Shown here: positions 1,694 to 63,040 of the stretch, one piece after another
How the letters are laid out: each line of letters starts with the position of its first letter
How positions within the stretch are numbered: the first letter of the stretch is position 1
Source: Eledone cirrhosa
Lineage: Eukaryota
Length of the DNA stretch: 64,000 nucleotides
Assembly (NCBI GenBank): GCA_964016885.1
Contig: OZ024755.1
Span: 9,734,001-9,798,000 of the forward strand
Direction of reading: 5' to 3'
Notes under the pieces: generated by a model
Database searches by the model: none
What the model saw: the letters and a program-made list of their open reading frames with translations, nothing else
What the model was told of the DNA's origin: nothing
Translations under genes and position numbers: made by a program

Positions 1694-1888
<195 letters not shown>

Positions 1889-4428: not shown

Positions 4429-4469
<41 letters not shown>

Positions 4470-8062: not shown

Positions 8063-8093
<31 letters not shown>

Positions 8094-8210
8094 TATATAA
8101 AATAAAATAAAATAAAATAAAATAAAATAAATAATTCAAATGTTTAAATCTGCATACTGAGGTGTTGGTATACAACCAACATATACTCAAAATTTATAAA
8201 TATATATATA

Positions 8211-8411
8211 TAGGAAAAAAGTCAGGACCCCGACGGCTGAGCTCTGGTCATATTGACAGCTAAATCTGAACTGTTCGGATCTAGCTGTTGAAATGGCTGG
8301 AGCTCAGTCGTCGGAGTCCTGACTCTTTTCCTATTACCCACTCTACTACCCTAAGTATTGAGTACTCTGGTGCGTTATGGTCCACCTGGTATCTTACTAA
8401 ACCCTCTTTGT

Positions 8412-8412
<1 letters not shown>
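8211..8412 (+). mobile_element. Palindromic (TA)n-inserted element, family B (half-hammerhead, Penelope pLTR-like)
   Basis: About 60-bp imperfect inverted arms plus a tail; homologous to 38306-38474 and 60875-61070. Confidence 0.6.
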
Positions 8413-8439
<27 letters not shown>

Positions 8440-8442
<3 letters not shown>

Positions 8443-9793: not shown

Positions 9794-9977
9794 CTGCTAA
9801 TTTATTTACCAAAAATCGTTCCCCTTGATTAAATATCTGGATAAAAGACATATTGCGATCATGAACATAATCTAATTTTTCATATGTCTGGTCATAGTGC
9901 TTAATCCGTTGTAAAAAGTCTCCTATTGCTTCATTTTTATCCATTCCCATATAGTCAGGACTGCAAATCTTCACCTC
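9794..9977 (-). CDS. PFKFB: PFKFB exon 6
   Basis: EVKICSPDYMGMDKNEAIGDFLQRIKHYDQTYEKLDYVHDRNMSFIQIFNQGERFLVNKLA; overlaps ORF 9762..9974. Confidence 0.97.
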
Positions 9978-10815
9978 CTACAACAAACACAAGAGAAGCA
10001 ATGAAATGACTTAACTCTTTAGCATTTACGTTACTCTATATTTACTATTGTATTTTTGTGATAAAAGCTTTATCCCGCATAAGTATCTCATATAATATCA
10101 AATCTATGAGATTTTGATGTTATTTATTTTGAGAACAATACCTTAACATCAGTATGAGTGGCCAGTTACAGCCGGTTTGAACAGAAAGAGGAGAGAGAAT
10201 TCTGGCCAGATACATGCTTAAAAGGTTAAAGAAATGAAATTAGCATGGACATGTGATGCATATGCACGATAATTGTTGGGTGAAGAAGTGCCATGAGTTC
10301 CCAGTGGAAGGATGCTGTAGTAGAGGAAGGCCAAGGAAAGACATGGACAGAGGTGGTTACAGCTGATCTCAACCCTGACCTTGATAAAGGAGATAACAAA
10401 GAATGCAGCAGGTGAAGGGAAGCTGTTCTGGAAAAGACCTATCCAACCCAGGCAAGTCAGTAAATAAAATTGCAACAAAGAAGTGTATGTCTGCAAGCAT
10501 GTGCGTGTGTGTGAGTCAGTGCAAGCATGTGTGTGCATGTGTATATGCATGTATGTGTGTCTGAGTGTATGTGTGTGTGTATTTTCGCAACCAGGTAGAA
10601 ATGACATTTTAGACAGCAGTCAGTTTATTTAGAGATGTTTTGACTAATCTTACAGACATTTTGTTTTCCTAAGCAGCTAAAGAAATATATAGAAATATAG
10701 AAATAATATAAAATATAAACCAAAACAGTATTAAAATAAACAAATAATAAACCATTTGGCAAGTATGGTAATTTGGAAAAGGAAAATAATATATATATAC
10801 ACATACAAACACGCA

Positions 10816-10848
<33 letters not shown>

Positions 10849-11506
10849 CTGTGTGTGTGTATATACACACACACATACCATATATACATATACATACACA
10901 CATACCATATATACATATACATACACACATACCATATATACATATACATACCGTATATATATATATATATATATACATATGATTACACAAACATATACAC
11001 ACACACATAGATAGATAGATGTACACACACACACACACACGCATATATATACCCATATATATATAAATAAACAAGAAAAGTATCCTATTGCAGTCAGAAT
11101 GTCGATTGCTGCTGTAGAAAAACAGTAAAAATCTGGAGACTCTGCTTCTAAGTATGAGTAAGCCATTTCAAGGTTGTACAGGTTTCAAGGAAAAATCTAC
11201 ACAACACAAAAGTTTGTAATCTGTTATTGGTTCCAAATGCTGAAGGTCATGGTCAAATGAAACAGCTGTTACAGTCAAGGTCATTGCAGGTTGCATCAGC
11301 AACAATTATACACTAAATTATGTATATAAAAGACAGTGTTTATTTTAAGGGAATTTTAGAACTGCTATGTTTGATAATCTCTGAGTCTGAGAAGCATTTG
11401 TAATCAAACTATTTTTAACATTAAATGAGTATTTTAAGTCTTTTAATCATCATTTACTATGTAAATGCATATAGTAAAGTCACCCCCACAAAAAAATAAC
11501 GAATTA

Positions 11507-11662
<156 letters not shown>

Positions 11663-11878
11663 TTATTCAGTATTTTAACCCTTTCATGATTGTATCTTTG
11701 ATTTCTAATAAATTTGTAAATAATCAAGAATTTGGAAGGATTTAGTAATATAACAAACTTTCTCATTATACATGCCTACATCATTGGGATCAAAAGGGTT
11801 AAGGAAATAAAAATACAGTCTTCTTTTACAAAAAAAGATAGAATAATGATTAAGAATAAATAGAAAAGATTCACTTAC

Positions 11879-11942
11879 AGCAACTTCCCCACCACTTGAG
11901 AGATAAGACCGTGCATCTTCAATGGCTAACAGAGCACATTTA
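11879..11942 (-). CDS. PFKFB: PFKFB exon 4
   Basis: HKCALLAIEDARSYLSSGGEVA; phase 2/0; TTTCAG and GTAAGT borders. Confidence 0.95.
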
Positions 11943-13376
11943 CTGAAAGATAAATTAATATTTTCAGTTTTTCAAACATTTTTATCAGATCAAATATGTA
12001 ATTTATTTATAAATTCATGTTTGAAACAACCAGATATAACTTCTACTTTAATAAGAATGGTCTTGAAAGATGTTATTTTATTCTGATCAATAAATTTTAT
12101 CAAGATTTGCATGCATGGTCCCTAACTGCTGGAGGAGTTGTATTGACATTTTTAAACCTGGCGGAGCACATCTACTCTCCAGGTTTATTAAGATTTATAG
12201 AATTTAAGTTGCAGAAGGTATCCAAATTATTTGATTTAGAATAGGTACATCATATCCCTGTATGTCATGACGTTTGGTGCCATGAAAACATTTCTTCAAT
12301 GGAGAAAATAAATCAATTTTTCATCATTTGTTTTTCAATCCTGAAAAAAAGAACACTTGGGATGTGATCAATGGAATAGCCTGCACATGAAATTAATGTG
12401 TTAGTGGCTGAGCATTCCAAAGACATGTACCCATAATATAATTTTCCTGGTGATTCTGTGTGCTAAGGCTAGCTCTCTGAATTTCAGGTACAACTCCCAG
12501 TACTAGGCAGGTACTTTTTTTAATAACCTCGAAAGGATGAAAGGTATAGTTGAACTCTGCAAAATTTGAACTCAGAACAGAAACATGGAACAAATACTGC
12601 AAAGCATTCTATCCAATGTTATAACAACTCTGCCAATTCACCACCTTTTAGATAAATATATAAACATTTTAAAACAAACAGTTTTACATTACAGACCCAG
12701 AGCTAGTTTCAGGCAGTTTGCTATCAAAAGGAGGCAACATCTTGTTCTGATTAAAACATTATTCCATTGAAGACAGAAGAAATTCAATGTCAGCCTCTTT
12801 GATTTATTATAATAAAATAATACAATATTGATTTTATAGTAACTGGAGCAACATTTTCGTTTATTAGAGCAGGTGTAACTACAGTGAAAGATCAAGAATT
12901 GGATTCATTCCAGGAATAAATAGCTTTCTGTTATTTTGTTTTTCACCAGTAAATAAATAGACCGTAGATGTAGATATGGCTGTGTGGTTAAAGAGTTCAT
13001 GTTGCAACCATACAGTTTCAGTTTCAGTCACCCTGTGTGGTACCTTGGGCAGGTGTTTTCTACTAATGCCCTGGGTTGGCCAGTGCTTGTAAGTGGGATT
13101 TGGTAGATGTAAACTATAGAAGCCCATCATATATGTGTGTGAGTGAGCGAGCAAAGGAGTGAGTGTGAGAGCAAGTATAAGTGAGAGTAAGTGGGCATGA
13201 GAATGGCTTACCTAGGGAACAGAGGCAAATGTTGGGTACTAAAAGAAAATTACTGTGTGCCAGTCATCTCAGACTAAGGTTTCTAATATTGGGCACTTTT
13301 ATTTATCATGGGGGTCCTTTTTGAGACGTTTTACTGCTTGAAGCTCTTCCTAGTGCCAACCATTTTAGTCGTTTCA

Positions 13377-13667
<291 letters not shown>

Positions 13668-16268
13668 CTAACAATAAAATAAAATATGAGATTTTGGCTT
13701 TGAAAATATCCATTTTACTTGATAGGGTTGGACTGGTCACCATAGACCAAAACAGTACTTAAACAGAACTACTGATCTCTCAGATAGGTGAGGGGTTGCA
13801 TCTGCCGTTACATATGTTCTCAGCACTGGGGAAGTTGTCATGACTGACACAATTGAAGAGTCCTCTCTACCCTTTATTTGAAAAGTTTTCTACAGCTGGA
13901 AGCCATTCACATCATCCCTTACTTTACAGTGTACTGGGTGTGTTTCATTGTGTAAATACTTTTGTAGTAGCAAACCAGAAAAGTATATTTGTTGCTCTTT
14001 TTTTTTATAGACCAACACAAGATAAAATTCAATGATGTAGCTAATTTGTAACAGTAAAATCCAACTATAAATTGAAATGTGGTTGTGCCAACATAACTGA
14101 CTATGAAAATAGCTAATCACTTAAAAAGTCAGGTAAAGTACCTTTGAAGATGGAAAAAAGTAAACAGAGGCACCTGATTGTTATTATTATTATTATTATA
14201 GTCATTTATGTTGGGACAACTACATTTCAATTTTCAAATGTTTCTAATGTTTCTTAAGTCAACTGAATATTGATAAATTGTGTTTAGCAAGACACTTTAT
14301 TTAACATTGCTCCAGTTTACTCAGCTGTAGAAATGAGATGATAGGGACTGGGTTCCCTATCATTCCACTGCAAAGTGGACGTGTAGGCACCACGGCAAAA
14401 AAGCACCCAGCACTCACTGTAAATGAGGTTGGTGTTAGGAAGGGCATCCAGCTGTAGAAATCAAGCCAGAATCAGTTCCCGTCCCACCCTTGCAAGCAGG
14501 GAAAAGCGTACGTAAAATGATAATGATAATGGCAAAACACAGTGCAGCAAAGCATGTCAATGTGAAAATAATTATAGATCTAGACACTTCACTTTCATGC
14601 AAGACTACACAAATGGGTTTTCTATTTCCTATGAGATCTACAGAAACACATTAAATCAATTCTCAAATATATATATATTGTGTGTGTGTGTGTGTGTGTG
14701 TGCTTTTTTAATAGTTATTTATTGATATAATTATAATCTCTCCTTTCATAATGTTTATAAGGTGGAGTCATTATGTTGGTGATGTCGCTACAAAACTAAG
14801 CAATCAGTTTTTTACTGTCACTAATTAAGTATCACAAACAAGCAAAGAATGAACTTAACGTTAAAGTTTGAGTCAACACTTTTCTGACCTTATTTCTAAT
14901 GTAAGACATAACCTATAATGTTCAAATGATTCTGAAAACAATCAAGAATTTCAAGGGATTTAGTAATATAATTAATTTTCTCATTACTTAGCATAACTTG
15001 GAGCATAACTTAAAGGGAGTTCTTACATAAGATTACAATCGAAGATTTTGAAATAAACATAAATATTTTCATTCTTGATACCCAACCCAACCAAAACTAG
15101 CTCTGGTTCTATGAAACAAAACTATCCATTTTAAAAGATTTCTATTTAAATTGAAAACTTCCAATGTTATTTTATATAAGAATCGTATACTTAAATAATT
15201 ATTTCATTACTAAGATAATAACTAAGTAAATCCTTCAAACTTTTTCATTAATTAATTGAAATAAGGTTTCTTTCATTCGAATTATGGTAAAAAAAAAAAA
15301 AAAAAAAAGAGTTGGAATAAATAGCTTAGAACCACAAGGTAGTTTCAGGTGCTTTGGAAAAACATGACACTGGTAGTGATGAGAGTGAAAAGTGAGACAT
15401 ATAGAGATACATTTACAAATAGAAGTGTATATGAAATTATATACAATATTTTTATGTCTATTAATGTCGATCCAGGAGACAGTAGAGGCCCAGGAAGACC
15501 AAAAAGGACTTGGATGGAGGAAGTCTGTTGGGATCAAGCTAGGCTTGGCCTGGCCCAAGTGAGACCAGTGGACAGAAACACATGGAGCAGGGCGCTAGGA
15601 AGTGCTGTCAGGCAGGATCCACCTCTACTTAGGGATTAATTGTGTCCTGCATAATCAAAAACTGGATGATGATGATGATTAAACATACATGAGTCTTGCT
15701 GTAGGTATTTTAAGCTGTGATCATTTCATAGCTACTTTATGTCATAATCAATACATTGAACATAACATGATGCCAGCTTAAAATAATCAAAGGGAAGGGA
15801 GACATAGGTATGTTTATTATACATAAACTATATTGTATATGCTTCCATAAACAGCTCTGAATAACAGTGTTAGTGCTACAGTTGACATTTACCATTGCTG
15901 GGATTTCTTTGGTGCAGGGTAAAGAGGAAATTAATCTTACACATGAGACAGGTTATCAAACACTCCAAGAAAGTGTTAAATTAAATGACATTTCAAAATG
16001 AAACGTGATCCTTTTTCTAACTAACCACAATTCTAATTTGAGAAACTAAAAAGATAAAGAAGCCGATCATTTTCTGAAAAGTCAAGGTTTCTGATAAAGT
16101 TTAACTTTTAACTGATAAAATTTAATGCTTAAAAGTATTTAGCAGAAAATATCTAAAAACAGGTTTGCTAATTCAAACATTTATAGTATATTTATTATGA
16201 ATGAGAAAATTTGCAGTATTACGGTAAAGACTAATTTTTAACTCAATATTTTGTAATATTGAGTGTTA

Positions 16269-16308
<40 letters not shown>

Positions 16309-16569
16309 GTGATCGTCATTGTTTAACATCCATTTTATTCCACGCTTACATTGGTTAGGCAGGTTGTTCGTATTATGAAACAAGTCTGGTCAGTTGCCCT
16401 CACTGTACCTTGCTCTCTCTCTCTCACACACACACACACTTATATCTGTATACATACAGGGTGTGAAACCGAGACTGCACAAATGGGTATATAAATATAC
16501 ATATATTTAATATGTTGACATGTAAAGATACCAAAAAATATGAATTATGCTGTAAATTGAAAAACATAA

Positions 16570-16618
16570 ACACCTTTAAGTGATTTCTGGAACTAGTTTG
16601 GCCCTCATCAGAAGGTGT
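16570..16618 (-). ncRNA. Degenerate minimal hammerhead motif
   Basis: ACACCTT-CTGATGA-gggccaaactagttcca-GAAA-tcact-TA-AAGGTGT; 7-bp stem I, weak stems II and III. Confidence 0.5.
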
Positions 16619-17195
16619 GTAGTATAGTATCATTTTATGTCCACTTTTCCCTGCTTGCAAGGGTGGGATGGGAACTGATTCTGGCTTGATTTCTACAGCT
16701 GGATGCCCTTCCTAACACCAACCTCATTTACAGTGAGTGCTGGGTGCTTTTTTTCTGTGGCGCCTCCATGACCACTTTGCAGTGGAATGATAGGGACCCC
16801 AGTCCTATCATCTCATTTCTACAGCTGAGTAAACTGGAGCAATGTGAAATAAAGTGTCTTGCTCAAGGAAACAACACATCACCCGGTCTGAGAATTGAAC
16901 TCACAACCTTTCGATTCATTCAAACAGCCACAAGGAAACATGTATTTGGTGAGTGTTTATATACCCATTCACTCTTAGTATTATCCTGAAATGGATGTAC
17001 TAAGGTGTTTATCATTTTTTCAAATCACAACAAAATTCATATTTTTTGGCATGTTTACATGCCTACATATGAAATATCTGTGTATTTATATACTCATTGG
17101 TGCAATCTTTCAGGTACACTCTATATGTATACAGACATAGCTTTATGGCACACTTTGGTTGCTAACTCACTTCTTAATATGTGTGCGTGTGTATA

Positions 17196-17246
<51 letters not shown>

Positions 17247-17859
17247 GAAGACTGGTAAGGAAGACTAGTAAACAAAAGAATGTTCTGACAAAAGAAAAGG
17301 TTACAAATCAGCTGAGAAAGTAACAAAAGCTTGTATGTGAAGATTTTTATGTAAAGGTTCTACTTGTTACAGCAAGTTGAGACATTATTATAGATGTTAT
17401 ATACAATAGAATAGGTTATTGGGTTTTGTTATTGTTGTTGTTGTTTTCATTCCATTGTTGTTTCATCATCATCATCGTCATCACTTTATACCTGCTTTTT
17501 ACATTGGTATGGGTTGGACAGTTTGGAGTAACCTCATTGTACACATACATTTCATAATTTGGCATGGTTTCTATGGTTGGATGCCCTTCCTAATGCCAAC
17601 CTCTTTTCAGAATGTACTGGGTATGTTTTTTTTCTGGCACCAGTACTATCACTTTTCAGAGTGAACTGGTTGCATATTTTGTGGCACCAACACTAAAACT
17701 TTACAGGGTGTACTGGGTGCATTTTATTGTGTGGTTCCAATACTGGAGAGCCTGTTACATGGATTCAAGTTAAAACAATAATAATAATAATTTTCCATAT
17801 TTGCATAGGTTGGCATTTCTATGCCTCTTTCCTTTGAGTATCAGTGATGCTAATAATAA

Positions 17860-18629
<770 letters not shown>

Positions 18630-26656: not shown

Positions 26657-27291
26657 CATCATCATCATCAACGTTTAACGTCCGTGTTCCATGCTTGCAT
26701 GGGTTTGGACGGGGGTAGTCCCACTTGAGGCAAGAGTGATTGTCTTGCTCGCATAGGACTGTCTGGCAGGTTTTCTACAGTTGGATGCCCTTCCTAACAC
26801 CAACCACATTTACAGTGTGGGTCTGGGAGGTTTTTACCGTGTTGCCTACACGGCCACATTACAGCGTGGACTGTGTTTTTTTGTCGTGACACCTACACGA
26901 TCTCATTTGTTTCGGCCTGGATGGCGCGGCACCAACATAACTTTACATAGAACGGGGTGGTGTGGATGGGGTGGGGGTGGTGGCGGGACGGGGTGTATTT
27001 TGTTAGAGATGCCTACTGGCAAGGCGGGTCTTCTCTGTTACTGAGTACCGCCAAAGGTCTCGGTCCAGTGACATTGTCTTGGAGAGGTGTAAGTGTGTGA
27101 GGTCGGAGTTTATCAGCTCATCCCAGGTTTTTCTAGGTCTGCCTATTCCGTGGCTACCGTCTATCTTTATTGCCCTGCACTTTGTTATACAGCTATCGAC
27201 TTTCATGCGCATCACGTGTCCATACCAACGCAGCCTTCTCTCGAGTAAACAACATCTGATCCCTCTTATCTCTAATTTTTTCCTTAGTTCG

Positions 27292-27295
<4 letters not shown>
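26657..27295 (-). mobile_element. RTE-clade LINE 3' fragment (same subfamily as 8440-9157)
   Basis: ORF 27003..27215 contains GRPRKTWDELINSDL; shared UTR and tail. Confidence 0.9.
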
Positions 27296-27330
<35 letters not shown>

Positions 27331-28424
27331 GTATGTATATATAATATATATATATATATGTGTATATATTATATGTGTGTGTATATATAATATATATATA
27401 TATATGTGTATATATAATATATATATATATATATATATGTGTATATATAATATATATATATATATGTGTGTATATATAATATATATGTGTGTGTATATAT
27501 AATATATATACATGTGTGTGTATATATAATATATATATATGTGTGTGTATATATAATATATATATGTGTGTGTATATATAATATATATATATATGTGTGC
27601 GTGTATATATAATATATATATATATATTTATTTATATATATATATATATATATTATTCAGAATATTAATAAATGAAGACATTCACATAATCAAAATATAT
27701 GTTTTATTATATATATTTCTAAGATACTGTGTTGTTTTTTCAGTACGTCCTCGTCAGATAAAATACATGAATTGATGTATGACATACCTCAACGGTCTTG
27801 ATAGTTCAATTCCAGTATTGGCAGTGATTTATTACAACAAATCTCAACATTTATATACCACAAATAATAACATGAAAAATTTAAATTTAAGGAAGAAGAG
27901 GATGTGGAGCGAGATAAGGATATAAGGAGGGGGGGGGGGGATATGAGCAGATGCAAGAAAAAAAAATACAAACATACATAAATAAATATTTAAATGAGTA
28001 AATAGATGTATTAGGGAAGAAATATATAAAAGAAAAAAAGGCAGAAAGAGAAGAAATAACGACAAAAAAGAAAGAAATGAGGGGAGTAGGTAGAAAGACT
28101 GTTGTCTTCAAATATTAAGTCGAATGGAGGCAACCAATTAAATAACATGAAATTTTTAATATCTTTTGTATTTGGTTATGTTTAAGCTAATTATACTTAT
28201 ATATTATATCAAAATTAAATAAATAAAATTATTTTCTATAGCCGTCAGATATATAGTTTAAATAAGTAATACATTCACCAAATATTTTGTTACAACTTTT
28301 AAAAACATTTTTATCTTTAAAGCATATTTAAATAATTAAGTGTATTAGGATATTTATTAAAACACATGCATATATCACCACCAGTACATATATATTTTTT
28401 ATATTAAGAGTGTGTGTGCGTGTT

Positions 28425-29065: not shown

Positions 29066-29413
29066 GGAGGCACATGGCTTAGTGGTTAGAGCATTGGCCT
29101 TGCAATCGAAAGGTTGTGAGTTCAATTCTCAGACCGGGTGATGTGTTGTTTCCTTGAGCAAGACACTTTATTTCACATTGCTCCAGTTTACTCAGCTGTA
29201 GAAATGAGATGATAGGGACTGGGGTGCCTATCATTCCACTGCAAAGTGGTCGTGGAGGTGCCACGGCAAAAATGCACCCAGCACTCACTGTAAATGAGGT
29301 TGGTGTTAGGAAGGGCATCCAGCTGTAGAAATCATGCCAGAATCAGTTCCCGTCCCACCCCTGCAAGCAGGGAAAAGTGGACGTAAAAATGAAATGAAAT
29401 GAAATGAAATGAA
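29066..29413 (+). mobile_element. Full-length tRNA-derived SINE with RTE-type tail
   Basis: A box TGGCTTAGTGG, B box GAGTTCAATTC, central GTTAGGAAGGGCATCCAGCTGTA, (GAAAT)n tail. Confidence 0.9.
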
Positions 29414-29415
29414 TT

Positions 29416-29754
29416 CATCATCATCATTTCATTTTACGTCCACTTTTCCCTGCTTGCAAGGGTGGGACGGGAACTGATTCTGGCTTGATTTCTACAGCTG
29501 AATGCCGTTCCTAACACCAACCTCATTTACAGTGAGTGCTGAGTAATTTCTTGCCGTGGCACCTCTATGACCACTTTTTAGTGGAATGATAGGGACCCCA
29601 GTCCCTATCATCTCATTTCTACAGCTGAGTAAACTGGAGCAATGTGAAATAAAGTGTCTTGCTCAAGGAAACAACACATCACCCGGTCTGAGAATTGAAC
29701 TCACAACCTTTCGATTGCAAGGCTAATGCTCTAACAACTAAGCCATGTGCCTCC
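29416..29754 (-). mobile_element. Full-length tRNA-derived SINE, same family, inverted
   Basis: Near-identical reverse complement of 29066-29390; truncated copies at about 14283-14530 (+) and 16630-16913 (-). Confidence 0.9.
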
Positions 29755-29826
29755 ATCATATATATATATATATATGAGAAAAGGGAGGTATGGTTCTATA
29801 CAAAACAGTGGATATAGAGAAAAGGT

Positions 29827-30307
29827 GAAGTTGGAAATAGCACGGAAAATATATTTAAGGGTCTTTTTCTTTTTTTATCCTTTCTTCAAAGTGACATTAT
29901 TGAAAAAATGAGAGGGACAATTCTTTTTAAAAAAAGTATATAAAGTATATAACTTTATATACATTATAAAATTTTTTTAAAAAGAATTTCCCTCTCATTT
30001 TTTCAATAATGTCATCTTTTCAATAATTGTTTCTAATTTTTGCACAAGGCCAGCAATTATCCCAGTGCATTACTGGTACTTTATTTTATCAACCCCATAA
30101 GGAAGAAAGGCAAAGTTAACCTCGACGGGATTTGAACTCAGAACGGCAAGGGCCGTAACTATGCGTCAAAGCATGGTGTCTGACCCTCTACCGATACTGC
30201 CAATCCACCGCCCTCCATCTTTTCAATAATGTCACTTTGACGAATCAAAGAAAGGATAAAAAAAGAAAAACAGACCCTTAAATATATTTTCTGTGCTATT
30301 TCCAACT

Positions 30308-30309
<2 letters not shown>
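29827..30309. repeat. AT-rich foldback palindrome interrupted by a SINE
   Basis: GAAGTTGGAAATAGCAC...GTGCTATTTCCAACTTC arms, centre near 29950. Confidence 0.8.
30028..30215 (-). mobile_element. Same Nin-like SINE with 15-bp TSD
   Basis: TSD CATCTTTTCAATAAT at 30013-30027 and 30216-30230. Confidence 0.9.
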
Positions 30310-30351
<42 letters not shown>

Positions 30352-30406
30352 TGAGATTCTACAGGACTAGAACTGTTTCATTCTTTAGAAATCATCAGGA
30401 ATCTCA
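30352..30406 (-). ncRNA. Type I minimal hammerhead ribozyme motif (family A, left arm)
   Basis: Minus strand reads TGAGATTC-CTGATGA-tttctaaagaat-GAAA-CAG-ttctagtc-CTG-TA-GAATCTCA: 8-bp stem I, short stem II, stem III, GUA site. Confidence 0.75.
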
Positions 30407-30408
30407 AT

Positions 30409-30457
30409 GATTCCTGATGATTTCTAAAGAATGAAACAGTTCTAGTCCTGTAGAATC
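30409..30457 (+). ncRNA. Type I minimal hammerhead ribozyme motif (family A, right arm)
   Basis: GATTC-CTGATGA-tttctaaagaat-GAAA-CAGttctagtcCTG-TA-GAATC. Confidence 0.75.
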
Positions 30458-30540
30458 TCATCTATATTAAAACTTTTATACTCTGCAATGTATTGAGTAC
30501 CTTACTTACTGTGGTTACCTCCGATTCAACCCGGAATAAC

Positions 30541-30589
<49 letters not shown>

Positions 30590-33577
30590 CATTGTACCTT
30601 TGAAATATGTATAATAAAATATACATTTTGATCATGAGAATATTTTTCATTTATTAACATTTTGAATAATATATGTATATATATAAGTGTGTGTGTGCGT
30701 GTGCGTGTGCGTGTGCGCGTGTGCGCGTGCGCGTGTGCGTGTGTGTGTGTGCGCGTGTGTGCGCGTGTGCGTGTGCGTGTGTGTATACAGAGAGAGAGAG
30801 AGAGAGAAAGTCAGCTATTTAACTTTGCTCTTATTTAAAAAGAATTTAATTTATGTAAATGTTTAATCTATTTATGTATATTTAATCTTTGAAAAGATTA
30901 TATTGTTCACAATATATCTAAGGCAGTATTTTAATGTCTAAATATGATTCTAAATGCCACAATGTTACTGGCATTTTTCAAGTAAAGCCAATAGTTTTTA
31001 TAAGCATTAAACCTACATTTCACAAAATGGATTATATTGTGAATACGTTTTTTCTTCTTTTATAATCCAACCGTTTCTAGCAGAGAAAGCAAACATTAAA
31101 CAATGGTGATGATGAGGAGGAGGTGGCTGATTAGTCATGATAAAACAATGTCTTTGGAAGACATCTTGCTGTCTATAGATTCTGCACATCTTTTTACAAG
31201 TCTTGCAAGCATAAGTCACTATTGGCATGGTGATTGATATATAGAGGTGGAGTTTGGTGCCTTGGTTCATGGAGGAGTTGGCCCAAACAGGTGGAGGAGT
31301 TGGCCCATACAGGTGGAGGAATTGGCCCATACAGAATTTTGGAGTTAAGGGGAAATCCATGTCTCTGGACAGGGGTTTATTCCAGGTGGTGTTAGTCGGA
31401 ATGTACTGAGCCCAGGTGTTATGTACGGCAAGGTTATAATTACCTGTAGTCAAGATTCAAGTTCCCGCCCAACCACTCCCCCATCAATTCCAACAACACC
31501 AAGGTTTTCTTTTCTTTTTTTTATCAAAACCATATAACCATATCTGAATTGTCAAGTTGAGGGGAAAAAAATAATAATTTTCGAATAATTTATGTAAATA
31601 CCTAGTGTTCTGAAAAATGCATTAAACCATAAAACCAATAAACCATATCAGAACTGCTAGGTCAAGCAGAAAATTTTGTTTCCATAAATTCCTACAGTTA
31701 TGGAAAAAAACATAAGCATAGACATAGCTGTGAGGTTAAGGGGTTTGCTTCACAACCATGTGGTTTCAGGTTCAGTCCCACTGAGTGGTACCTTGGGCAA
31801 GTGTCTAAGGTAGCTACAGGTTGACCAATGGTTTGTAAGTGAAATTTTGTATACAGAAACTGTATAGAAGCCTGTCATGCGTATGTTGTCATATAGAAGC
31901 CCGTCATATTGATGCCAAGTGTGGTAGAGTGTCGGTTACCATGCTTCACAGCATAGAGTTACGGCCCTTTACGTTCTGAGGTCAAATCCCACAGAGGGTA
32001 ACTTTGCCTTTCATCCTTACGGGGTCAATAAAATAAAGTACCAGTAATGCACTGGGGTTGATTTAATTGACTTTCCCCTCCCCCAAATTGCTGGCCTTGT
32101 GCCTATAGTAGAAATCATATGTGTGCATGTTTACATTTACAATTTGTTTGAGTAATGAGAAGGGATTGATAAAATGCATACCATTCTTGAAAAAGAATAT
32201 AAGTACCAGGGTCGAAATAATCAACTATATTCCTCCAAGATGGTGTTCCAGCATGGCCACAGAACAATACTTGAAACCGTAAAATAACAAAAGAATGACT
32301 ACAATGAGTTCTGTTCACTATTTTACCATTAATGCAATGACCTCTGTTCTTTTAAGTTTGCAAACAATTGATGCCACACCAATAATGCCTATTTATTCTT
32401 CACGATGTTCTACTTCTCATTAGCTTAACAACTCTCTCTAATTAAACACAGAAACTATCTTAACAACTCTATATCTAATTAAACACACAAATCTTTATAA
32501 ATTATCGCTTCACTGAAAATCTTCATCTAACCTGATTAAGTTTTGTGTGTCAATGACTAATGTTAATTTGGGGTACTGTTTTTTCTGAAATTGATTGAAC
32601 GGAGACAATAAAGGATAGGAGAGAATATTCAGTCTTGTTGAATACATGATGACAAAACAACTCTAGTGCTGGTGCCTAAATGAACCCAGTACACTCTGTA
32701 AAGTGGTTGAACTGGTGCCACGATAAAATGCACCCATTACACACTGTAAAGTGGTAGTACTGGTGCCATAATTTAAGTGCATCTAGTCCACTCTAAAGTA
32801 ATAATGCTGCTGCCATGATAAAATGCATCTAGTACACTCTGTAAAGTGGAAATACTGGTGCCATAATTAAAATGCACCTCTAATGTAGTAGTGCTAGTGC
32901 CACAATAAAATGCACCTAGTATATTTGTTAAACTGTTCACATACTGAGTCAGTACTTAAGCAGGGATACTGACCTAACAAATTAGCTGGGGGCCTGTATA
33001 TCATGATCCTGTGTCCTACTTAGTGCACTTTGTCATGATACCAGAGGTTGTCATGTCTTGTCATTGATGCAATTAAAGGGTCCTCCCAAACATTTATTTG
33101 GCAGGTTTTCTATAGCTGGATACTCTTCCTATCACCAAGCATTATACAGAATGTACTGGGGGCATTTAACATAAGGTGGTTGTCTTGTCATTGATACAGC
33201 TAAAAGGTCCTCACACCCATTCATTTGGCAGGTTTTTGTACCAAGATACTCTTTATAGAGTTTACTGAGTGCATTTATCGTGTAGATCACAAACACTAAG
33301 GAGAGTGCTGTTAATCAATTTTGTTGTCCAGGTATTTTTTGTCAACAGGTGTAAGTCAGCCGAAATTAATAATACTTTTTACAGAAAAAGTCTAATATCT
33401 GAGAAGTACATTCATTGCCAACTGACTGTAACCATAGAAATGAGTTAAAAGTTTTACAAAGAATGTTGCCAATAGTTAAAATAGTCTATAGAGGAGAGAA
33501 ACATTTTTATTTCTTTTTAATTGAAACAAATAGCAGTAAAATATCTTGCACTTATACAATAAATATGAAGAGGTGGA

Positions 33578-35324: not shown

Positions 35325-37940
35325 CGTCCAATCATATATATATATATATATATATGTTTGTATGTACACACACACAATCCACAAGCAGCTATGTTAAAGT
35401 TTAGTGAAGAAACTGAATATTACTTATTCCTATTCTATTAGTAAAACAATGAGTTATGTAGTAGTTTATTTGTAATTATCTAAGCAACAAACACACAATG
35501 TTTCTATACCAATGTTATTTATAAAAGATAAGCCACATTTAAAATAGCTACCAGAGATCAAATAAGTAATATCTCATTGTTTTTTTTTCTATGAAAGTGA
35601 TGCTCAACACACAAAACTAAACAATTATCTCTTCAGTTATATTTTCAAACTAGTGGTCCCATACTGTCAATAATGATAGCAATAGTATTGAACATATTTT
35701 AGTTTTGGAGTCTACGGTTAGTATGCCACATATAGAACGAAGCCAAAATTCGGCTCTGTATGAGCGAGACATGGTCACCTGACCTGACATTGCAAACATG
35801 TTGATAACATGTCAACGACCCAAGAGTTTTTAATCTTGGTGTGAAATATTCTGATATTCTGTAAAGGTTATTTTATAAATTCCAGACTTTTGGTTTCAAA
35901 CTGATAATCTGCTCAGAGGGATTAAGGAAAAATGAACGGCATTTCTATTTTTAACCCTTTTATTAACATGTTTCTAATGGAAGATACTGCCTATGGTTTT
36001 CAAATCATTTTGAAAATAATCAACAATAACTGACATTTGAACATAATCAAGGATTTGAGGGATTTTGTCACATAACTATCATTATTAAGAGGGCGATGGA
36101 TTGGCAGTATCGGTAGAACGTTGGACAGCCTGCTTTGCAGCATATAGTTATGATTCTTTACGTTCTGAGTTCTAATCCTGCCATGGTTAGCTTTACTTTT
36201 CATCCTTATGGGGGTCAATAAAATGAAGAACCAGAGCGTAGAGAGCCAGAATGAATACTGAAGTATTTAATCCAACACTCATACAACGCTGCAAATTCAA
36301 TGAGTTAATAACAACAACTACCCTGAAACATATGTTTAATGTTATCACCACTACCACCACCACAATCATCCCCACCACCACCATCACTACTACCACTACC
36401 ATCATCACTACTGCCACCATCATCATGGATTGGAAGGGCCTTTTCCAATACAGCTTCCCTCTACTTGCTGTGAAACTTTGACATCTCCTCTGTGAGTTTC
36501 TGAGATCTACTCTCATCACTTCTGCCCAGATCTCCCTTGGTCTCTACAGCAGTATCCTTCTACTTTTTCACCTAACAATAATCATCCATATAAACATCAC
36601 ATGTTCATACCAGTGCTGTCTTCTCTCTCTTGCACACTACATTTGATTTCTCTTATATTAAGTTTCTCTCTCAGTTTATCCATATTTTGACATTATATTA
36701 CTAAAAAATCTTATTTCTTTCAAATGATACCAAATCTTACATTTCGAAAGACATACAGGACATAAAGGTGTTGTTTTTTCTTCCTCAGCTGAACTGAAAC
36801 TCATTAAATATCACACCTGTATGTTACTATATATTATCAATATTACTAGAACTAATCTGTTTTTTTTCAAAAGATTTACATTGTTGATACGTGTGACCTT
36901 TGCTAATAGTTTAAAAGTGCCTTGGCATTAAGCTTGATATGCTAACATGTGGAAACAATTTTCAAAACCAATGTAGGTTGAATGGCTGTGAGATTAAGGT
37001 GTTGGACTGATAACCACAGAGTCATAAGTTCAAATCTTGGTATATCCATTTCGTTGTGCTTCAAGTGAGGAATGTAAATATCTGCTCTACCCATTATATT
37101 TATCTAAAACTTCAACACCTGTTTTATATATAAGTGGCTCGTGACAGGGAATACAATCAACCCAAAATGCTCAACTCTTATTTTATAGTGGAGTGGTTTG
37201 TAAGAAAGAGTATATCCAGCCATAAAAACAACTGCTCCAACGCAATAAGAAATATTCTGTGTTTTTATGTTGACTGTGTGTTTGTTTATATTATGAAGAT
37301 AGTGCCCTAGTTTTTCAGTTTTGAACTGAAATATTAGGGCTATTTTCATAGATCAATCTAATTTATATTTACTTAGTCTCTCTAATCATTTCCTTACCGT
37401 ATTTCTCATAAAAGATGCTGTCTATAATTTTCAAATAATGTTGAAAATAATCAAGAATTTGGAGTGATTTAGTAATATAACTGCCTTTTTCGTAATTAAG
37501 CAAGCATTTAGAACATAACTTAATGGTTTTGCATCCAGGGCCAGTTTCAAGCAGTTTGGTATCAAAAAGGTTTAAATTACAAAGGTGTGTCTTTACTTCA
37601 AAAGAAATTGAAAATTCTAGGGGGTGGATTGTCTTTTTTTTTGGTGGTGGTGTGTGTGTGTGTGTGTGTGGGGGGGGGGGGGCATTTTGCATAAAAAATA
37701 GCCAATAAGCTAGAAACACGTGTCTCTATTTAAACACTTATGATTAATAATGACTTCATATTTTTATAACCTCAACATTTTAAAAATATATAAAGAAAGA
37801 AATACAAAGAAATCTACAAATATATAGCAGTTTAAAAGATATTTCCCTCACTACCCGTTTAACATAAAGAATTTGATTGAATCAACTAACCAAACAACCA
37901 AACAAAATAACATTCATTTAGTTACAGCTATAAACCTTAC

Positions 37941-38305: not shown

Positions 38306-38474
38306 AACGAAGGAGTTGTGGTAAGGAACCAGATGGACCATAACGCACCAGAGTACTCAATACTTAGGGTAGTAGAGTGGGTAACAGAAAGTATGACCCC
38401 GACGGCAGAGCTCAAGCCGTTTCGACGGCTATTTCTGGACTCTTGAGCTCTGCCGTCGGAGTCATACTTTCTCC
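38306..38474 (-). mobile_element. Family B palindromic element
   Basis: Minus strand carries GAAA-CGGC-ttgagctct-GCCG-TC-GGGGTC; short inverted arm; flanked by (TA)n. Confidence 0.6.
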
Positions 38475-38602
38475 TATATATATATATATATGAATTATTT
38501 TCCCACATCTTACGTTAACTATTTTTCCATTTTGACGTTATAGTCACTTATATATTATGAAATACTCTTGGCTTCACGCTCACAATAATTTCTATACTTT
38601 TC

Positions 38603-38636
<34 letters not shown>

Positions 38637-38720
38637 ATATGCAGTTGACAGCTGTGGGAAAGGAGTATTTAGTACCAAAGTAGAGTTTTAATATTCATTT
38701 TATTATGGCTGAATAGTGAG

Positions 38721-38826
38721 TCTTGTTACTCTGGAGTTTCGCCTGTTGATCACAGGGTCATCAGACAAGAACTTGATCCTGTCTGATGACCCTGTGCTAA
38801 ACAGGCGAAACTCCTGTGTAACATGA
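38721..38826. ncRNA. Back-to-back hammerhead pair (family C): 38721-38770 minus (intact), 38777-38826 plus (diverged)
   Basis: Minus strand reads TCTTGT-CTGATGA-cCCTGTgatcaACAGGc-GAAA-CTCcaGAG-TA-ACAAGA; all three stems pair. Confidence 0.8.
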
Positions 38827-39026
38827 TTCACTATTCAGTCTTAATAAAATGACGATATATATATGTGTGTGTTTGAGAGACGAGGAAAAAAAGAATAAGA
38901 ATAAAGAAGAGATGGAGAGAAAGTAAAAGAAGAGAAAGTAAAAGAAGAGAAAGTAAAAGAAGAGATGGAGAGAAAGTAAAAGAAGAGATGGAGAGAAAGT
39001 AAAAGAAGAGATGGAGAGAAAGTAAA

Positions 39027-46900: not shown

Positions 46901-47798
46901 CAGTTGAATTTGGAGTGAAAAAAGCAGTGTAGGCTAGCAGTTGTTGCTACTACAGCTGGGTGTCGACGATAAAGAGGGCGGGGTAAAAACCAGGAGAAGA
47001 GGTTAGGTTAGGTTGGAGAAAGAAGGAAGATAGTTGATAATAAAAAGGCTAAGATAGGGTGAGACAGACGTGTTGAATTAAACTGTCAACAATAGAGATT
47101 CTGCAATAGGTAAATGTAACGATGATGTAAAGTAAAACAGGAAGGAGAAATTATGCATTATACCTCGCCTTTATACCTTTTGTATTTATATCAAACGTGT
47201 TTAGATAGCATGGCTTTCCTCATGTACTACACACGTAGACAACAATATTTAATACCAAAATACGACTTTTCACTATTTTTTATCCAATAAACTTGATTAT
47301 CTTTTTTCTTTTGTTATATATAAAGAAAAGATTTTGAATAACTGACGTTATCTTACGTTCCCCGTAGACTATTGCTAATCGTTGAAAAACTACATATAAA
47401 GGGTGTCCCCTTAAAATGTATAACACTTCAACACCATTGTAATCAAAGTGTGTATACATTTTTTGGTGACACCCTGTATACACACACATACATTACATTA
47501 CATTACATTATATATATATATATACACACATACATATACATACACACATATATATACACACACATATATATATATACATATATACATACATACACACACA
47601 TATATACATACGCACATATATATACATACATACGCACATATATATATATATACATACATACATACATACACATATATATATATACGCACATATATACACA
47701 TATATATATATATACGCACATATATATATATATATACATACATACACATATATATATACGCACATATATATATACATACATACACATATATATATACG

Positions 47799-48657: not shown

Positions 48658-50645
48658 AAAGTTTATATGGTTCGTTGATTATTCAACGAATACAATTTTA
48701 CAATAGATTAGAAGCACTCGACAATATTTTCTGGAGTATGCCACTATTGGAATTGAATAATCAAAACCGTAGCGGTATGTCGCATATACAATCTCACATA
48801 TATTTTATCTGATGAAAACGTACTTAAACACTATTGTACCTTTGAAATATGTATAATAACATATATATTTTGGTTATGAGAATATTTTTCATTTATTGAT
48901 ATTTTATAGTCTTTATTATGGTTAAGTGATGAGTCTTGTTACTTTCGAGTTTCACCTGTATACCCACAGGATCATCAGAATTAAACTTACCACTTAGCCT
49001 TAATAAAGAACATACATTCCTTAATGTAGTGTGTAGTTGAGTGTGTATGTCCTCTCTTGTCTTTATTTATTCATTTACTCAGACTAATTTTTATCGTAAA
49101 TCATATTTATATATATATACATATACAATATGTTTCTAAAAATAAAGTTTGCGCTCTTATTTTTAAATGCAAGTATATAAGATTTCAGTTTTTAAAAAGT
49201 TTATGAATAATTCAAATTTCAGACTAATATATTGTTTTAATAATAATTTTCTAAAATTAAACTGAAAAAAATTAAAATGTGTGATGTGATGTGATCACGT
49301 TTTGTTTCTGTGGAATATCGCATTGTTTATCTCATTCCCAGTAAATGTAAGTTAAATTTAGAACCAAGAAATAGTTAATAAGAACAACACCACGGAAGGT
49401 GGGAGCTTAGAAATTAGATAAAAGTAAACACGATAGAAGACAATTCTTCCCTCGTATCGTGTGAAATATTCTTTTAAATATAAAATCGTTACAGTTAGAG
49501 CAAATAGCACACCAAATTTCGGTGTTTTCAAGGAAATACAAAATAATTCACAACTTAAAACCTCTATGAGCGACCGATTATTTTAAATATAAATTTATTT
49601 GAGATTTAGTTGTTTAAAATTAATTATCCAGCATTATTCCTGATGTTTAGCCACAGGTCAGCCTTAAGTAGATTTATTATCAAAGACGTTTCAGCCTTCA
49701 CTATCCCATCTAGGAATGCATTTTTGGCTGCTATTTCTAGCGAGTAGAAGAGCGACAAGGTAGAAGCATCCCCAAGCTTTGTTATTTTTAGCTTTCGAAA
49801 CGAACGACTAGCAATGGTGTGTACTTCAGTATTCCTTAAAACATGTGTAATTAAGCTATTTTGGTGTAAATGTTTGTTGGTGGTTTGCTTAAAACAACAA
49901 CAAAAATTCGATTATGATTTCATTATATTAGAATTTCAAATTGATTAAATAAATCAGCTTTTTTCGTAACATTTTCAATGAAGAGTATTTACAGAACTAT
50001 AGATATGTTTATACTTTCATCGCATGTAGTATCGTCAATAATTGAAGATATTAATTTTTAAAAACTCAACATATAAAAAAGTCTTAATGTTGAGTAGATG
50101 TTTAATTAGTTAATCAAAATTCGTAATATTGGTTAGAGGAGAATATTGAGTTAGTTCGCTTAACGACTTCTTCGACCTTGAGCCAAGCATTGGGGGGGGG
50201 GCAAGGTTAAGGTTATTTCAAGTGCCACACCGAGAGGCGGGACCAACGTGTGTGAGTTTGTATGTGTAAAGCTGGCATAAACAGTCTTGTGAAATACAAG
50301 TAGGTTACGATCGTCATCCTTCGTATGAATATATATTAGGAACAGTATATTTATGACTTTCAAACCAAAAATTTCTAAATTTTCTCTTTAAAATTAACAA
50401 AACACCCATATTTATGATAAAAATTCATAAAAATGTCTTCACATTTTTTTTCTAACGATGTTGTCAACTATGTAAAACGAAGTATTTAGTGTCTTTTTTT
50501 TTTCTCAATAATGATCTCATTTTTATTTATCCACCCCACTTTTATTTTTCTCATGTTTATTAAATACTTTTATTATTCTCTACCATAAAACCATAAATAA
50601 ATATATCGTAAATAGATTTTTAATCAAATGATGAACAAACGATAA

Positions 50646-50840: not shown

Positions 50841-51983
50841 TTCCAAACAGGCTTTCCTCATGATTTCAAACGAATGAAAAGAGTTCTATTTGTATAGAAG
50901 TCATTTTTATATGAAATAAATATATATATATATTGCTGCGATATATTATTAACAGTTCAAATCCCGCCGAGGTTAACTTTGTCTTTCATCCTTACGGGGT
51001 CGATAAAATAAAGTACCAGTAATGCACCGAGTATTTGCTGGCCTTGTGCCAAAAGTAGAAACAATTATTAACAAGTTGTGAGAAAGAGAGAGAGAAAATA
51101 TAAGAAAATATAGGAAATCTAGGTGCGACTATATAGAAATGTTAGTATCTGCTTATATAAATAAACTAGCATTATTACATCTTTTATAATGTTATCGAAA
51201 TAGGTCTACGTGCGAACGAATATGTTTTCTATATTGGGACATAAAACTATTGGGTATCCTCATTAAATCATTATGTATTCATTTGACCTTAATACATGAA
51301 AATTAAAACTAAAAAGGTCACATGTTAAAATCCATCATCAGGTAGAGATATTCTCAAAGGAATTGCCGAGAAAGGTGAAGACATGATTCTAGTAACAAAA
51401 TGAGAATAAACATATTTCGCAGGCTTCAACTACTTAAGTGCGTGTAATTGTTTGTGAGTGTGTTAGGGTGAGGTTGTGTATGTGTATTTATTTGTGTGTG
51501 ATTCTATGTATGTGTGTGTTGAGATTTAGTACAGTCCGTATCTCTAGTTTTTTTTTTTTGGGGGGGGGGGGGGTATATTTTTGATAATATAGTTTACCTG
51601 TTGTAAAATAAACTTTCGTTCTTAAAATGTTAAGAGGAAGAAAGAGAAATGCTAACGGGTGTCTGCTGATAATTCCTTGCCAATCAGATTACACACATAT
51701 ATACATACACAACCTATATACACACCCATACACATATATATGGTGTATGTATATGTTTTTATATACATAGACACAGACCTACATACACACGGGCACACAT
51801 GTACATACACTACATAAATACAGTCAGAGAGATAGATAGACAATGAAATAAGATAACAGGAATGTATCAATTTATTGTTTTTCCCATATTTGCGTCTTTG
51901 TTTCTTTTTTTTTTTTTTTTTTTGAAAATACGTGCTATTCCACGGGTCTCCTCAGAAACAATCATTGCCAAAGCAGACGACAT

Positions 51984-60874: not shown

Positions 60875-61070
60875 AATGAAGGAAATGTGGTAAGGAACCA
60901 GATGGACCATAACGCACCAAAGTACTCAATACTTAGGGTAGTAGAGTGGGTGATAGGAACGAATAGGACCCCGACGGCTGAGCTCAAGCCGTTTCGACGG
61001 CTAATTCTGGGTCCAGAATTAGCCGTCGAAACAGCTTGAGCTCAGCCGTCGGGGTCCTACTCGTTCCTAT
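60875..61070 (-). mobile_element. Family B palindromic element
   Basis: 58-bp inverted arms 60953-61010 and 61013-61070; flanked by (TA)n. Confidence 0.65.
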
Positions 61071-61160
61071 ATATATATATATATATGTTATTCCGGGTTG
61101 AATCGGAGGTAACCACAGTACTCAATACATAGCAGAGTATAAAAGTTTTAATATAGATGA

Positions 61161-61259
61161 GATTCTACAGGACTAGAACTGTTTCATTCTTTAGAAATCA
61201 TCAGGAATCAGATTCCTGATGATTTCTAAATAATGAAACAGTTCTAGTCCTGTAGAATC
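61161..61259. ncRNA. Back-to-back hammerhead pair (family A): 61161-61209 minus, 61211-61259 plus
   Basis: Same motif as the 30.4 kb copy; 66-bp inverted arms with a 1-nt spacer and one mismatch. Confidence 0.75.
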
Positions 61260-61281
61260 TCATCTATATTAAAACTATATA

Positions 61282-61361
61282 TATAGGGTGTCTCAAAAAA
61301 TGTATACATACTTCAACAGCATTCTAATAAATGTGTATACATTTTTGGGGTACACCCTGTA
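61282..61361. mobile_element. Tc1/mariner-like mini-MITE, ~80 bp
   Basis: TA-(C/T)AGGGTGT...ACACCCTG-TA terminal inverted repeats; second copy at about 47397-47478. Confidence 0.7.
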
Positions 61362-62369: not shown

Positions 62370-63040
62370 CGCATCGGCGTTTCCCTGAGGCTCGGCCTCC
62401 GGATCTGCCAGCCACACCAATGTCGTTGCGGTTTCACTCCACCCGCTTTCCTGTCGCCACAGTGCCGGCCGCATTCCACGCCATGTTGCCCTCAACGAGG
62501 TCATTAAGCATGGCTTGGACGCTGCAGGCTTCTCTTCCCAGCTCGAGCCGGTGGGGCTGGATCGAGGGGATGGCATGACCATCTTCCCGTTCCGCGGTGG
62601 CAAACCCCTCATCTGGGATGCCACTTACACCAACACTTTCTGCAGCCGCAACCTGGTGCAGTCTGCGACTAACCTAGGTTCTGCTGCACGTCGGGCTGAG
62701 GGGGCCAAACTCCTCAAATACCGGTCGCTCTCCGACAGGTTTGCAGTCGTACCGCTGGCAGTGGAGACTTCTGGTGTCCTCGGCCCCAGAAATACCTCCT
62801 TACTCACCACCATAGGCGCTGAGCTGGCCAGCCGCAGGTGTGAGCCCCGCGAGTTGAAGTGGCTTTTTCCAGCACGTCTCCTTTGCCATCCTCCGGGGAA
62901 ACGCCTTCTCCATTCTGTCTGCTGGGGCTGTGGGTGGGCCCCATCGCGTACTGTTGTAGTTGTAGAAGAAACAGGAAGACAACAACTGGAAAGTTTGATT
63001 TTCTACTTTATCATTTACTGAAATATATATACTTTGTCAT
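62370..63040 (+). mobile_element. CRE/NeSL-like non-LTR retrotransposon 3' fragment (restriction-like endonuclease)
   Basis: GC-rich; LGLRICQPHQCRCG zinc knuckle, RH..LNEVI, LEPVGLDRGDG, LIWDAT, AE..K..KY, PLAVETSG, RGNA; frameshifted. Confidence 0.85.

Follow-up and report, generated by a model that had tools for sequence, protein, structure and literature searches.

What is the palindrome of about 190 bases that lies close to one end of a 64,000-nt stretch of octopus DNA (Eledone cirrhosa, contig OZ024755.1, positions 9,734,001 to 9,798,000; hereafter the window), and how did it form? The unit, called A2 below, consists of two inverted arms of 66 nt each, which are 98% complementary, separated by a 1-nt spacer and marked by a lone mismatch (position 61189 vs. 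61231), with a tail on one arm only and (TA)n runs on both sides; the arm coordinates bear out what an earlier note had claimed on these points. Block-wise dinucleotide shuffling of the window, repeated 30 times, gave arms of 15 nt at most when no more than one mismatch was allowed. Read in the sense of the ribozyme, the unit is made of two 5'-truncated element ends set 5' to 5', only one of which has a tail. This core, two hammerhead-bearing ends in a (TA)n target, is directly observed. As for its origin, we consider it likely that A2 is an ORF-less insertion product of a Hydra-clade Penelope-like element (PLE), rebuilt at each insertion by the joining of two cDNAs. The coordinates of the features are collected in Table 1.

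The hammerhead call in family A, to which A2 belongs, is based on the core motif and three helices. Each family A arm has a stem I of 5-8 bp, CUGAUGA, a 3-bp stem II (U.U at its base), GAAA, a 3-bp stem III and a cut after GUA, and its hammerhead points outward from the palindrome centre. The tailed arm of A2 shows the 3-bp stem II with U.U at the base, together with a self-complementary loop III. In the untailed arm, a G-to-T change at 61231 disrupts one stem II pair, and the arm ends about 21 nt past its cut, at TA-like bases. A relaxed hammerhead scan gave five matches in the window vs. none in each of the 30 shuffles. With Rfam, no hammerhead was matched at the gathering score, nor among the 150 listed of the 153 matches with E up to 5; among the matches listed, only simple-repeat matches to miRNA models appeared.

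Table 1. Position and strand of the features analysed (window coordinates, unless a contig is named).
Feature	Position	Strand	Remarks
(TA)n run, tail end of A2	61068..61086	.	common to A2 and to the family B palindrome B3 on its left
A2, one-sided tail (3' extension of the long arm)	61087..61143	-	ends 79 nt past the cleavage site
A2, bulged hairpin of the tail	61118..61138	-	4-bp outer stem, 2-nt bulge, 3-bp inner stem; +28 to +48 from the cleavage site
A2, tailed (long) arm, duplicated part	61144..61209	-	begins 44 nt ahead of the cleavage site
A2, type I hammerhead motif of the tailed arm	61161..61209	-	core at 61204, predicted cut after 61166
A2, 1-nt spacer	61210..61210	+	lengthens stem I of the untailed arm
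A2, untailed (short) arm	61211..61276	+	second hammerhead 61211-61259, cut after 61254
(TA)n run right of A2, short	61276..61288	.	seen in the sequence
A1, sister unit	30343..30541	+	untailed arm 30343-30403 (-), spacer 30404-30408, tailed arm 30409-30541 (+)
A3, decayed solo (non-palindromic) family A arm between (TA)n runs	50845..50920	+	75% identity
B1, older family B palindrome with tail	8213..8411	+	1-nt spacer
B2, family B palindrome with tail	38307..38474	-	25-nt spacer carried by the tailed arm
B3, family B palindrome with tail, 2-nt spacer, abuts A2	60876..61067	-	hammerhead without 5' core
C1, family C palindrome with tail	38635..38854	-	6-nt spacer, two hammerheads
C2, decayed family C copy	48895..49010	-	one hammerhead inside the spacer of a short inverted repeat
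6-phosphofructo-2-kinase/fructose-2,6-bisphosphatase coding exons	879-18596	-	residues 38-387 of the Octopus bimaculoides protein
L003	contig CBDDTI010000061.1, 1-4302		four PLE insertions in 4.3 kb
L005	contig CBDAUV010000069.1
L018	contig JAAESD010000473.1

Seven palindromic units from three sequence families (A1, A2, B1, B2, B3, C1 and the decayed C2) and the solo arm A3 were found in the window; both family A units, the B units and C1 end at (TA)n runs. The near-identical inverted copy which the earlier note had placed 31 kb away is A1, found at a distance of 30.7 kb in the opposite orientation, with inverted arms (30343-30403 and 30409-30469) of 61 nt that are 100% complementary around a 5-nt spacer, and with predicted cuts after 30360 (-) and after 30452 (+). 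Two substitutions and an indel of 9 nt within the tail separate A1 from A2; the remaining differences amount to 4 nt in the centre, 5 nt where the untailed arm ends and 1 nt where the tail ends. The tail quoted for A2 is indeed present, but it is not quite the same in both copies, which are set apart there by one substitution and the 9-nt indel. The element had also been described as young, which agrees with the two substitutions and with arms that are 98-100% paired, and as a ribozyme-bearing retroelement aimed at (TA)n, which agrees with hammerheads in both arms and ends at (TA)n.

Perfect short-spacer palindromes can come from breaks or library artefacts, and an assembly chimera, a local duplication or, at a fragile (TA)n site, hairpin formation at the DNA level could be invoked on that account. 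Such an origin is extremely unlikely here: the A1/A2 homology ends at the TA runs, the arms of older units have diverged to 82-88%, and the same geometry is repeated in three families and in the unrelated record L003 (see below). Local duplication in particular, a possibility raised in the earlier note, is contradicted by the other matches within 2 kb of both units, which are repeats recurring elsewhere in the window.

Elements were seen to pile up at shared (TA)n runs, namely at 61068-61086 (B3 and A2), at 30320-30344 (a hammerhead-less palindrome and A1) and at 38475-38634 (B2 near C1), and the PLEs of L003 are likewise stacked at shared (TA)n runs; these runs are landing sites used repeatedly. 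The hammerhead-less palindrome (29773-30320) is AT-rich, abuts A1, lies between (TA)n runs and has an extension of about 50 nt at one end. The palindrome, which is split by a repeat some 200 bp long whose duplicated target measures about 17 nt, occurs once in the window and could be a Naiad-type PLE product. A short repeat abutting the tail of A1 (30575-30676) was found again by eye at about 48800-48900, where the copy is a loose hammerhead-core match. Directly after A2 lies an imperfect palindrome of about 70 bp (61289-61360), related to a second one at 47400-47477 (85% identity); we take both to resemble Tc1/mariner-type MITEs.

Concerning the wider setting, ten tblastn matches to 6-phosphofructo-2-kinase/fructose-2,6-bisphosphatase were obtained at 0.9-18.6 kb on the minus strand, nine of them at 90-98% to the Octopus bimaculoides protein. 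A GC-rich frame of 210 aa (62389-63018, +) has unnamed eukaryotic proteins as its nearest Atlas clusters (0.95-0.96), and its motifs presumably resemble those at the restriction-like endonuclease end of CRE-type non-LTR elements. At 29066-29754, two 323-nt repeats in inverted orientation, separated by 43 nt and 95% complementary, have sub-threshold tRNA-like heads and are assumed to represent two SINE-like copies, tail to tail. LINE 3' fragments, presumably RTE-like, occur at 7550-8046, 8450-8778 and 27007-27368, several of them ending at (TA)n or (GAT)n runs.

The type of element is already known from the published anatomy of PLE insertions, which are 5'-truncated, often bear an inverted 5'-truncated copy at their 5' end and have a 30-40-bp tail at one end (PMC8557442). 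Head-to-head 5'-truncated copies with a one-sided tail are thus common to Penelope, Neptune and Naiad insertions and to the octopus units, although the general PLE tail measures 30-40 nt vs. 57-80 nt in the latter. Paired minimal hammerheads on opposite strands, 100-700 bp apart, have also been reported in Schistosoma (PMC4209133). Naiad/Chlamys elements have no canonical hammerhead (PMC8557442), and membership of family A in that clade was ruled out by its canonical hammerhead core.

The palindromic units very probably originate from the end of a Hydra-type PLE. (TA)n is the target of nearly all insertions by members of the Hydra clade, which have a hammerhead close to their 3' end (Craig et al. 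2021, PMC8557442); they include an Octopus bimaculoides family, Hydra-1_Obim (PMC8557442), and 31 PLE families of Octopus vulgaris are reported to be recently active (PMC13282606). The units share with this clade the (TA)n target, the 3' hammerhead, short and long classes of 3' end and a bulged hairpin, as well as the U.U at the base of stem II, seen by eye in 14 of the 25 tabulated families and in family A; an inverted 5'-truncated copy, as in the octopus units, is noted for the Hydra-clade element Penelope-13_HM (PMC8557442). In the Hydra table of the same paper, the distance from cut to end falls between 30 and 48 nt for 10 of 24 families and between 88 and 153 nt for 11; it is 63-70 nt in two and 355 nt in one, a tally that leaves aside Penelope-18_HMa (a 5'-end row), the antisense Penelope-13_HM row and two families without a row. 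The end classes of the window, +15 to +34 and +79 to +99, are similar, if slightly shorter. The asymmetry of the inverted copy in Penelope-13_HM (126 vs. 41 nt) was discarded, as it hinges on the minus-strand numbering of the table.

Unlike Hydra-clade PLEs, the octopus units have no ORF, measure about 200 bp as a whole and have both arms cut down to the hammerhead. Families A to C do not resemble the published 3' end of Hydra-1_Obim (by eye), and four family A motif terms had no occurrence in the available part of the Hydra/Naiad supplement of PMC8557442, where line breaks could mask a match. No RT or GIY-YIG ORF was found in the window by Pfam on 188 of the 230 stop-to-stop frames of at least 62 aa (the 42 others being of low complexity), a search that missed the ORF of L018 too; the units are therefore PLE products and not autonomous PLEs. 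Five ORF pieces from L003 and L018, run by tblastn against the window, gave one weak match (E 0.074), with no ORF joined to any octopus copy. A small imperfect palindrome at 37292-37482 overlaps a region where tblastn weakly matched a Hydra-type endonuclease (48 aa at 33%, E 0.074) and is perhaps a decayed PLE remnant. As for copies linked to an RT + GIY-YIG ORF, which the earlier note had in mind, none was found for family A (tblastn, window), but the same hairpin does lie 3' of Hydra-type ORFs in L003 and L018.

These loci come from a degenerate scan of GTDB genomes for the hammerhead core plus the tail motif, which returned 18 loci: L003 and L018 with all three hammerhead helices, L005 with two, and 15 with none, the last being taken as chance on that ground. 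The exact 24-nt core of family A had no match in GTDB genomes, BLAST of three window arms against all 18 loci gave nothing at E 0.01, and the tailed arm had no match among phage and plasmid records. L003, L005 and L018 are contigs of bacterial bins with animal-type PLEs and microsatellites, and are probably host DNA within GTDB genomes. As they were fetched with motifs derived from the window, their likeness to it is partly circular and alignment scores are no proof; in local alignment, four of the 12 pairs of window arms and these loci, chosen by shared motifs, scored above all 300 shuffles.

The RT + endonuclease frame of L018 (512 aa) stops 187 nt before the cut, and that of L003 (493 aa, accompanied by a 125-aa inverted piece) is 54% identical to it, the ORFs of the two loci ending 176-187 nt ahead of the cut. 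Both long frames have YRDD, a CxCX5C linker and an endonuclease core without cysteines. The published signatures of Hydra-clade proteins are CxCX5C linker, no CCHH, DKT, RWK; Neptune elements have a CX2-5CxxC linker, a CCHH endonuclease and a preference for microsatellites (PMC8557442).

An 11-nt motif of the tail occurs seven times in the window, six of them within these tails, vs. 0.67 expected for a motif that was picked after the tails had been viewed. This motif makes up the 3' half of a hairpin that has a bulge of 2 nt and whose pairs were counted by script because a MAFFT alignment was out of structural register. All seven pairs are present in A1, A2 and B1-B3, while the hairpin of C1 is decayed. 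Between the octopus units and L003/L018, the stem is altered on both sides. The 5' half of the hairpin was outside the search pattern, and it forms 7/7 pairs in L003 and L018 vs. 4-6 of 7, and never 7/7, in the 15 helix-less loci. L003 contains another Hydra-type element, one that the pattern did not pick up, and its hairpin is built on a different inner stem; in all, the three Hydra-type, ORF-linked ends of L003 and L018 have 7/7 pairs. In family A the tail hairpin is weak (z -1.5), the predicted fold giving the outer stem but not the inner one. By eye, bulged hairpins were recognised in Hydra-2_Amil and Hydra-2_Ajap, where they lie at the 3' end, and in Hydra-1_Ajap, where one lies at the 5' start; this last position suggests that the tail is the beginning of the following unit in a tandem. 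Neither this hairpin nor a fixed breakpoint is mentioned in the available part of the main text of PMC8557442.

The hairpin also bears on whether the parent could be a Neptune element, or another PLE with a C-terminal endonuclease, yielding the same type of product. Neptune elements too prefer microsatellites (PMC8557442), and the end of a Neptune-like element in L003, which has a 76-nt inverted 5' piece, likewise lies at (TA)n, 96 nt past its cut, which means that end distances alone are not specific to Hydra. This element, however, does not have the bulged hairpin (best 5/7 pairs, in a single control) found at 7/7 in the three Hydra-type ends, and a Neptune parent is improbable.

How a Hydra-type end becomes a palindrome may be approached through the breakpoints, counted in the six well-kept units (A1, A2, B1, B2, B3 and C1) of the three families. 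The tailed arms, 123-140 nt long, run in every case from 38-44 nt ahead of the cut to 79-99 nt past it. The untailed arms all end 15-34 nt past the cut, where the element sequence is itself TA-like, and five of the six start 40-50 nt ahead of it, the exception being B2 (16 nt). Breakpoints fall within about 12 nt, the spacer is 1-6 nt in five of the seven units, and the junctions differ among all seven. The clustering of tailed-arm starts 38-44 nt before the cut makes the breakpoints non-random relative to the ribozyme, as the reading in the earlier note implied. The fold-back point which it placed just 5' of stem I suits families A and C, but not family B, whose arms keep the same distance to the cut and yet begin 3' of the expected CUGAUGA core position; what is constant is therefore a distance and not a structural landmark. 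Ribozyme cleavage was rejected as the cause of the centre, the arms starting 38-50 nt upstream of the cut, and so was a splice acceptor, as A, B and C have no common AG (by eye).

In a fold-back, a single tail-primed cDNA would cross the hammerhead, fold over and use itself as template until a jump brings it to the (TA)n target. The arms within one copy are more alike than the same arm between copies, as such a process predicts, and it fits B2 and C2, where the spacer belongs to the tailed arm (25 nt in B2; in C2 the whole hammerhead, the short arm beginning just after stem I). A tailed-arm spacer is, however, what fold-back needs throughout, and in B1 and B3 the spacer matches the untailed arm, at 3/3 bases when compared with sequence from the long arm of B2 vs. 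0/3 the other way. In A1, the untailed arm has its stem I lengthened by the spacer to 8 bp (three extra pairs, chance about 0.02), and stem I pairing points the same way in A2. The anatomy of L003 is (TA)n, then an untailed arm that ends at about +32 and reaches 569 nt 5' into the ORF, then a tailed arm from -47 to near +107, i.e. the untailed arm exceeds the tailed one by over 500 nt. That the centre arose by a single cDNA simply folding back, as envisaged in the earlier note, is on these grounds unlikely.

The same note offered two ways of relating the copies, the palindrome either forming independently at each insertion or being itself mobile. In the second case, a 190-200-bp non-autonomous element would have its hairpin RNA copied by the PLE protein, later deletions accounting for the variable centres and ends. 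The total size is similar across all three families, the centre of A2 can be obtained from that of A1 by a 4-nt deletion, and the tail of such an RNA would remain single-stranded, so that its hairpin would be kept. Family B argues to the contrary: among its 62 columns, 15 are copy-specific (about 9-10 events, six of the columns deriving from one 2-nt indel), one is crossed and none is arm-specific. B1 and B2 also differ at the base adjoining the centre, in a way that fits natural sequence rather than one master; all seven junctions differ, a solo arm (A3) exists, and L003 has the same tailed-arm start with a partner as long as an ORF. Mobility of the unit itself is thus quite unlikely, and the copy-specific variants of family B, in which no arm-specific one is found, speak for separate formation at each insertion.

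Two separately primed and end-joined cDNAs fit all cases seen, and a two-cDNA (twin-priming) route is the one that we favour, with some reserve. A PLE protein (RT + GIY-YIG), acting in trans, or in cis from a parent located elsewhere, would bind the RNA at the conserved tail hairpin and would cut both strands of a (TA)n run. A first cDNA would be primed internally 80-100 nt past the ribozyme cut, just beyond the hairpin, and give the tailed arm, and a second one, primed at a TA-like site 15-35 nt past the cut, would give the untailed arm. Both cDNAs would halt some 40-50 nt ahead of the cut, the simplest reason being that the RNA starts there, and their ends would be joined with the loss of 0-6 nt from one side. 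The template would be uncleaved RNA, and the palindrome, remade at every insertion, would be a dead end, a read-through transcript of which may form a long hairpin locking both ribozymes. That a transcript start lies behind the fixed breakpoint is proposed tentatively. In Penelope of D. virilis, the start is 46 nt before an intron whose end meets helix I, so that a start right at the ribozyme is not general. Taken by their parts, we infer a protein site at the hairpin, twin priming, and an RNA 5' end behind the stop at -40 to -50.

L003 offers a further case between (TA)n runs, at 3236-3336, where two tail pieces that do not overlap (+55 to +5, then +65 to about +115) make up an inversion, a form that two primers on one RNA would give. 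In L1, twin priming reportedly involves two primers at one target site and results in an inverted 5' piece. The form at L003:3236-3336 is the same, whereas the two cDNAs of the octopus units span the same stretch of RNA, which would need two RNAs or two passes. The inverted piece at L003 3236-3286 stops 5 nt past the hammerhead cut of its parent family, unlike the octopus units, as if it had been copied from self-cleaved RNA.

Biochemical precedent comes from PAc, the PLE protein of the anole (Poseidon of Anolis carolinensis), which in vitro cuts and extends both strands of AT-rich DNA, with a dimer being modelled, uses uncleaved RNA and starts reverse transcription at two internal sites bounding the tail (PMC11167929). 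One internal start lies 85-92 nt past the hammerhead cut (111-118 minus 26; PMC11167929). PAc differs from the octopus case in belonging to another clade and in having a hammerhead that overlaps the start of the ORF, and the available part of the same paper gives no account of inverted products.

When folded by prediction as a whole, the units reach -107 to -114 kcal/mol with hammerhead helix probabilities of 0.0; in a single arm folded alone, stems II and III form poorly (at most 0.05), in agreement with reports of low activity in minimal PLE hammerheads. By these models, the palindromic units are unlikely to be working ribozymes. The self-complementary loop III would form a duplex of -9.4 kcal/mol in family A and -27.3 kcal/mol in family B. 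Type I hammerheads with such a loop III are what would be expected of an active retrozyme, that is, an element, short and non-coding, which cleaves itself, forms a circle and is inserted again. For non-LTR retrozymes an origin from PLE ends is reported, and they have in common with the octopus units a short, non-coding sequence and a type I hammerhead (10.64898/2026.07.22.740005). Yet retrozymes can cleave themselves and are arranged as head-to-tail tandems, both of their hammerheads lying on one strand (10.64898/2026.07.22.740005), whereas the octopus units are head-to-head, with hammerheads on opposite strands that are both predicted to be locked in the whole-unit hairpin. Moreover, family B is without the 5' core, the breakpoints lie away from the cleavage site, and no head-to-tail, retrozyme-like tandem appears in the tandem-repeat list of the window. 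An active retrozyme is therefore very improbable.

Inverted copies, one-sided tails, TA targeting and hammerheads in PLEs are already in print. A literature search, made outside subscription papers, Repbase and some supplements, found neither a description of ORF-less head-to-head hammerhead palindromes from octopus nor any paper dealing with the tail hairpin or with PLE twin priming, and within the same scope a fixed arm start was not found in print either. How the tandem and inverted structures of PLEs form and how microsatellites are chosen is described as open in PMC8557442, and the in vitro study, in its available part, stops short of explaining either (PMC11167929).

As the smallest complete PLE products, with four measurable breakpoints each, these stubs are of use here, since a genome-wide tally of them could separate fold-back, twin priming and mobility of the unit. 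The conserved hairpin is a candidate protein-binding site for the little-studied Hydra clade. It is possible, though with the balance somewhat against it, that throughout this clade the bulged hairpin positions the protein, with two primers from one (TA)n cut being placed on a transcript that starts 40-50 nt before the ribozyme cut, the minimal outcome being a 200-bp palindrome made afresh and present near one per 9 kb in the window. If true, the hairpin and two-primer reading would account at once for the inverted repeats, the tail at one end only and the abundance of solo PLE hammerheads, and would define a minimal RNA for an in vitro test. For annotation, such palindromes resemble miRNA precursors or MITEs and yet are PLE debris. 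Cephalopods are known for heavy A-to-I RNA editing, and the stubs would, if this reading is true, be a large source of perfect RNA hairpins of 60-80 bp in octopus.
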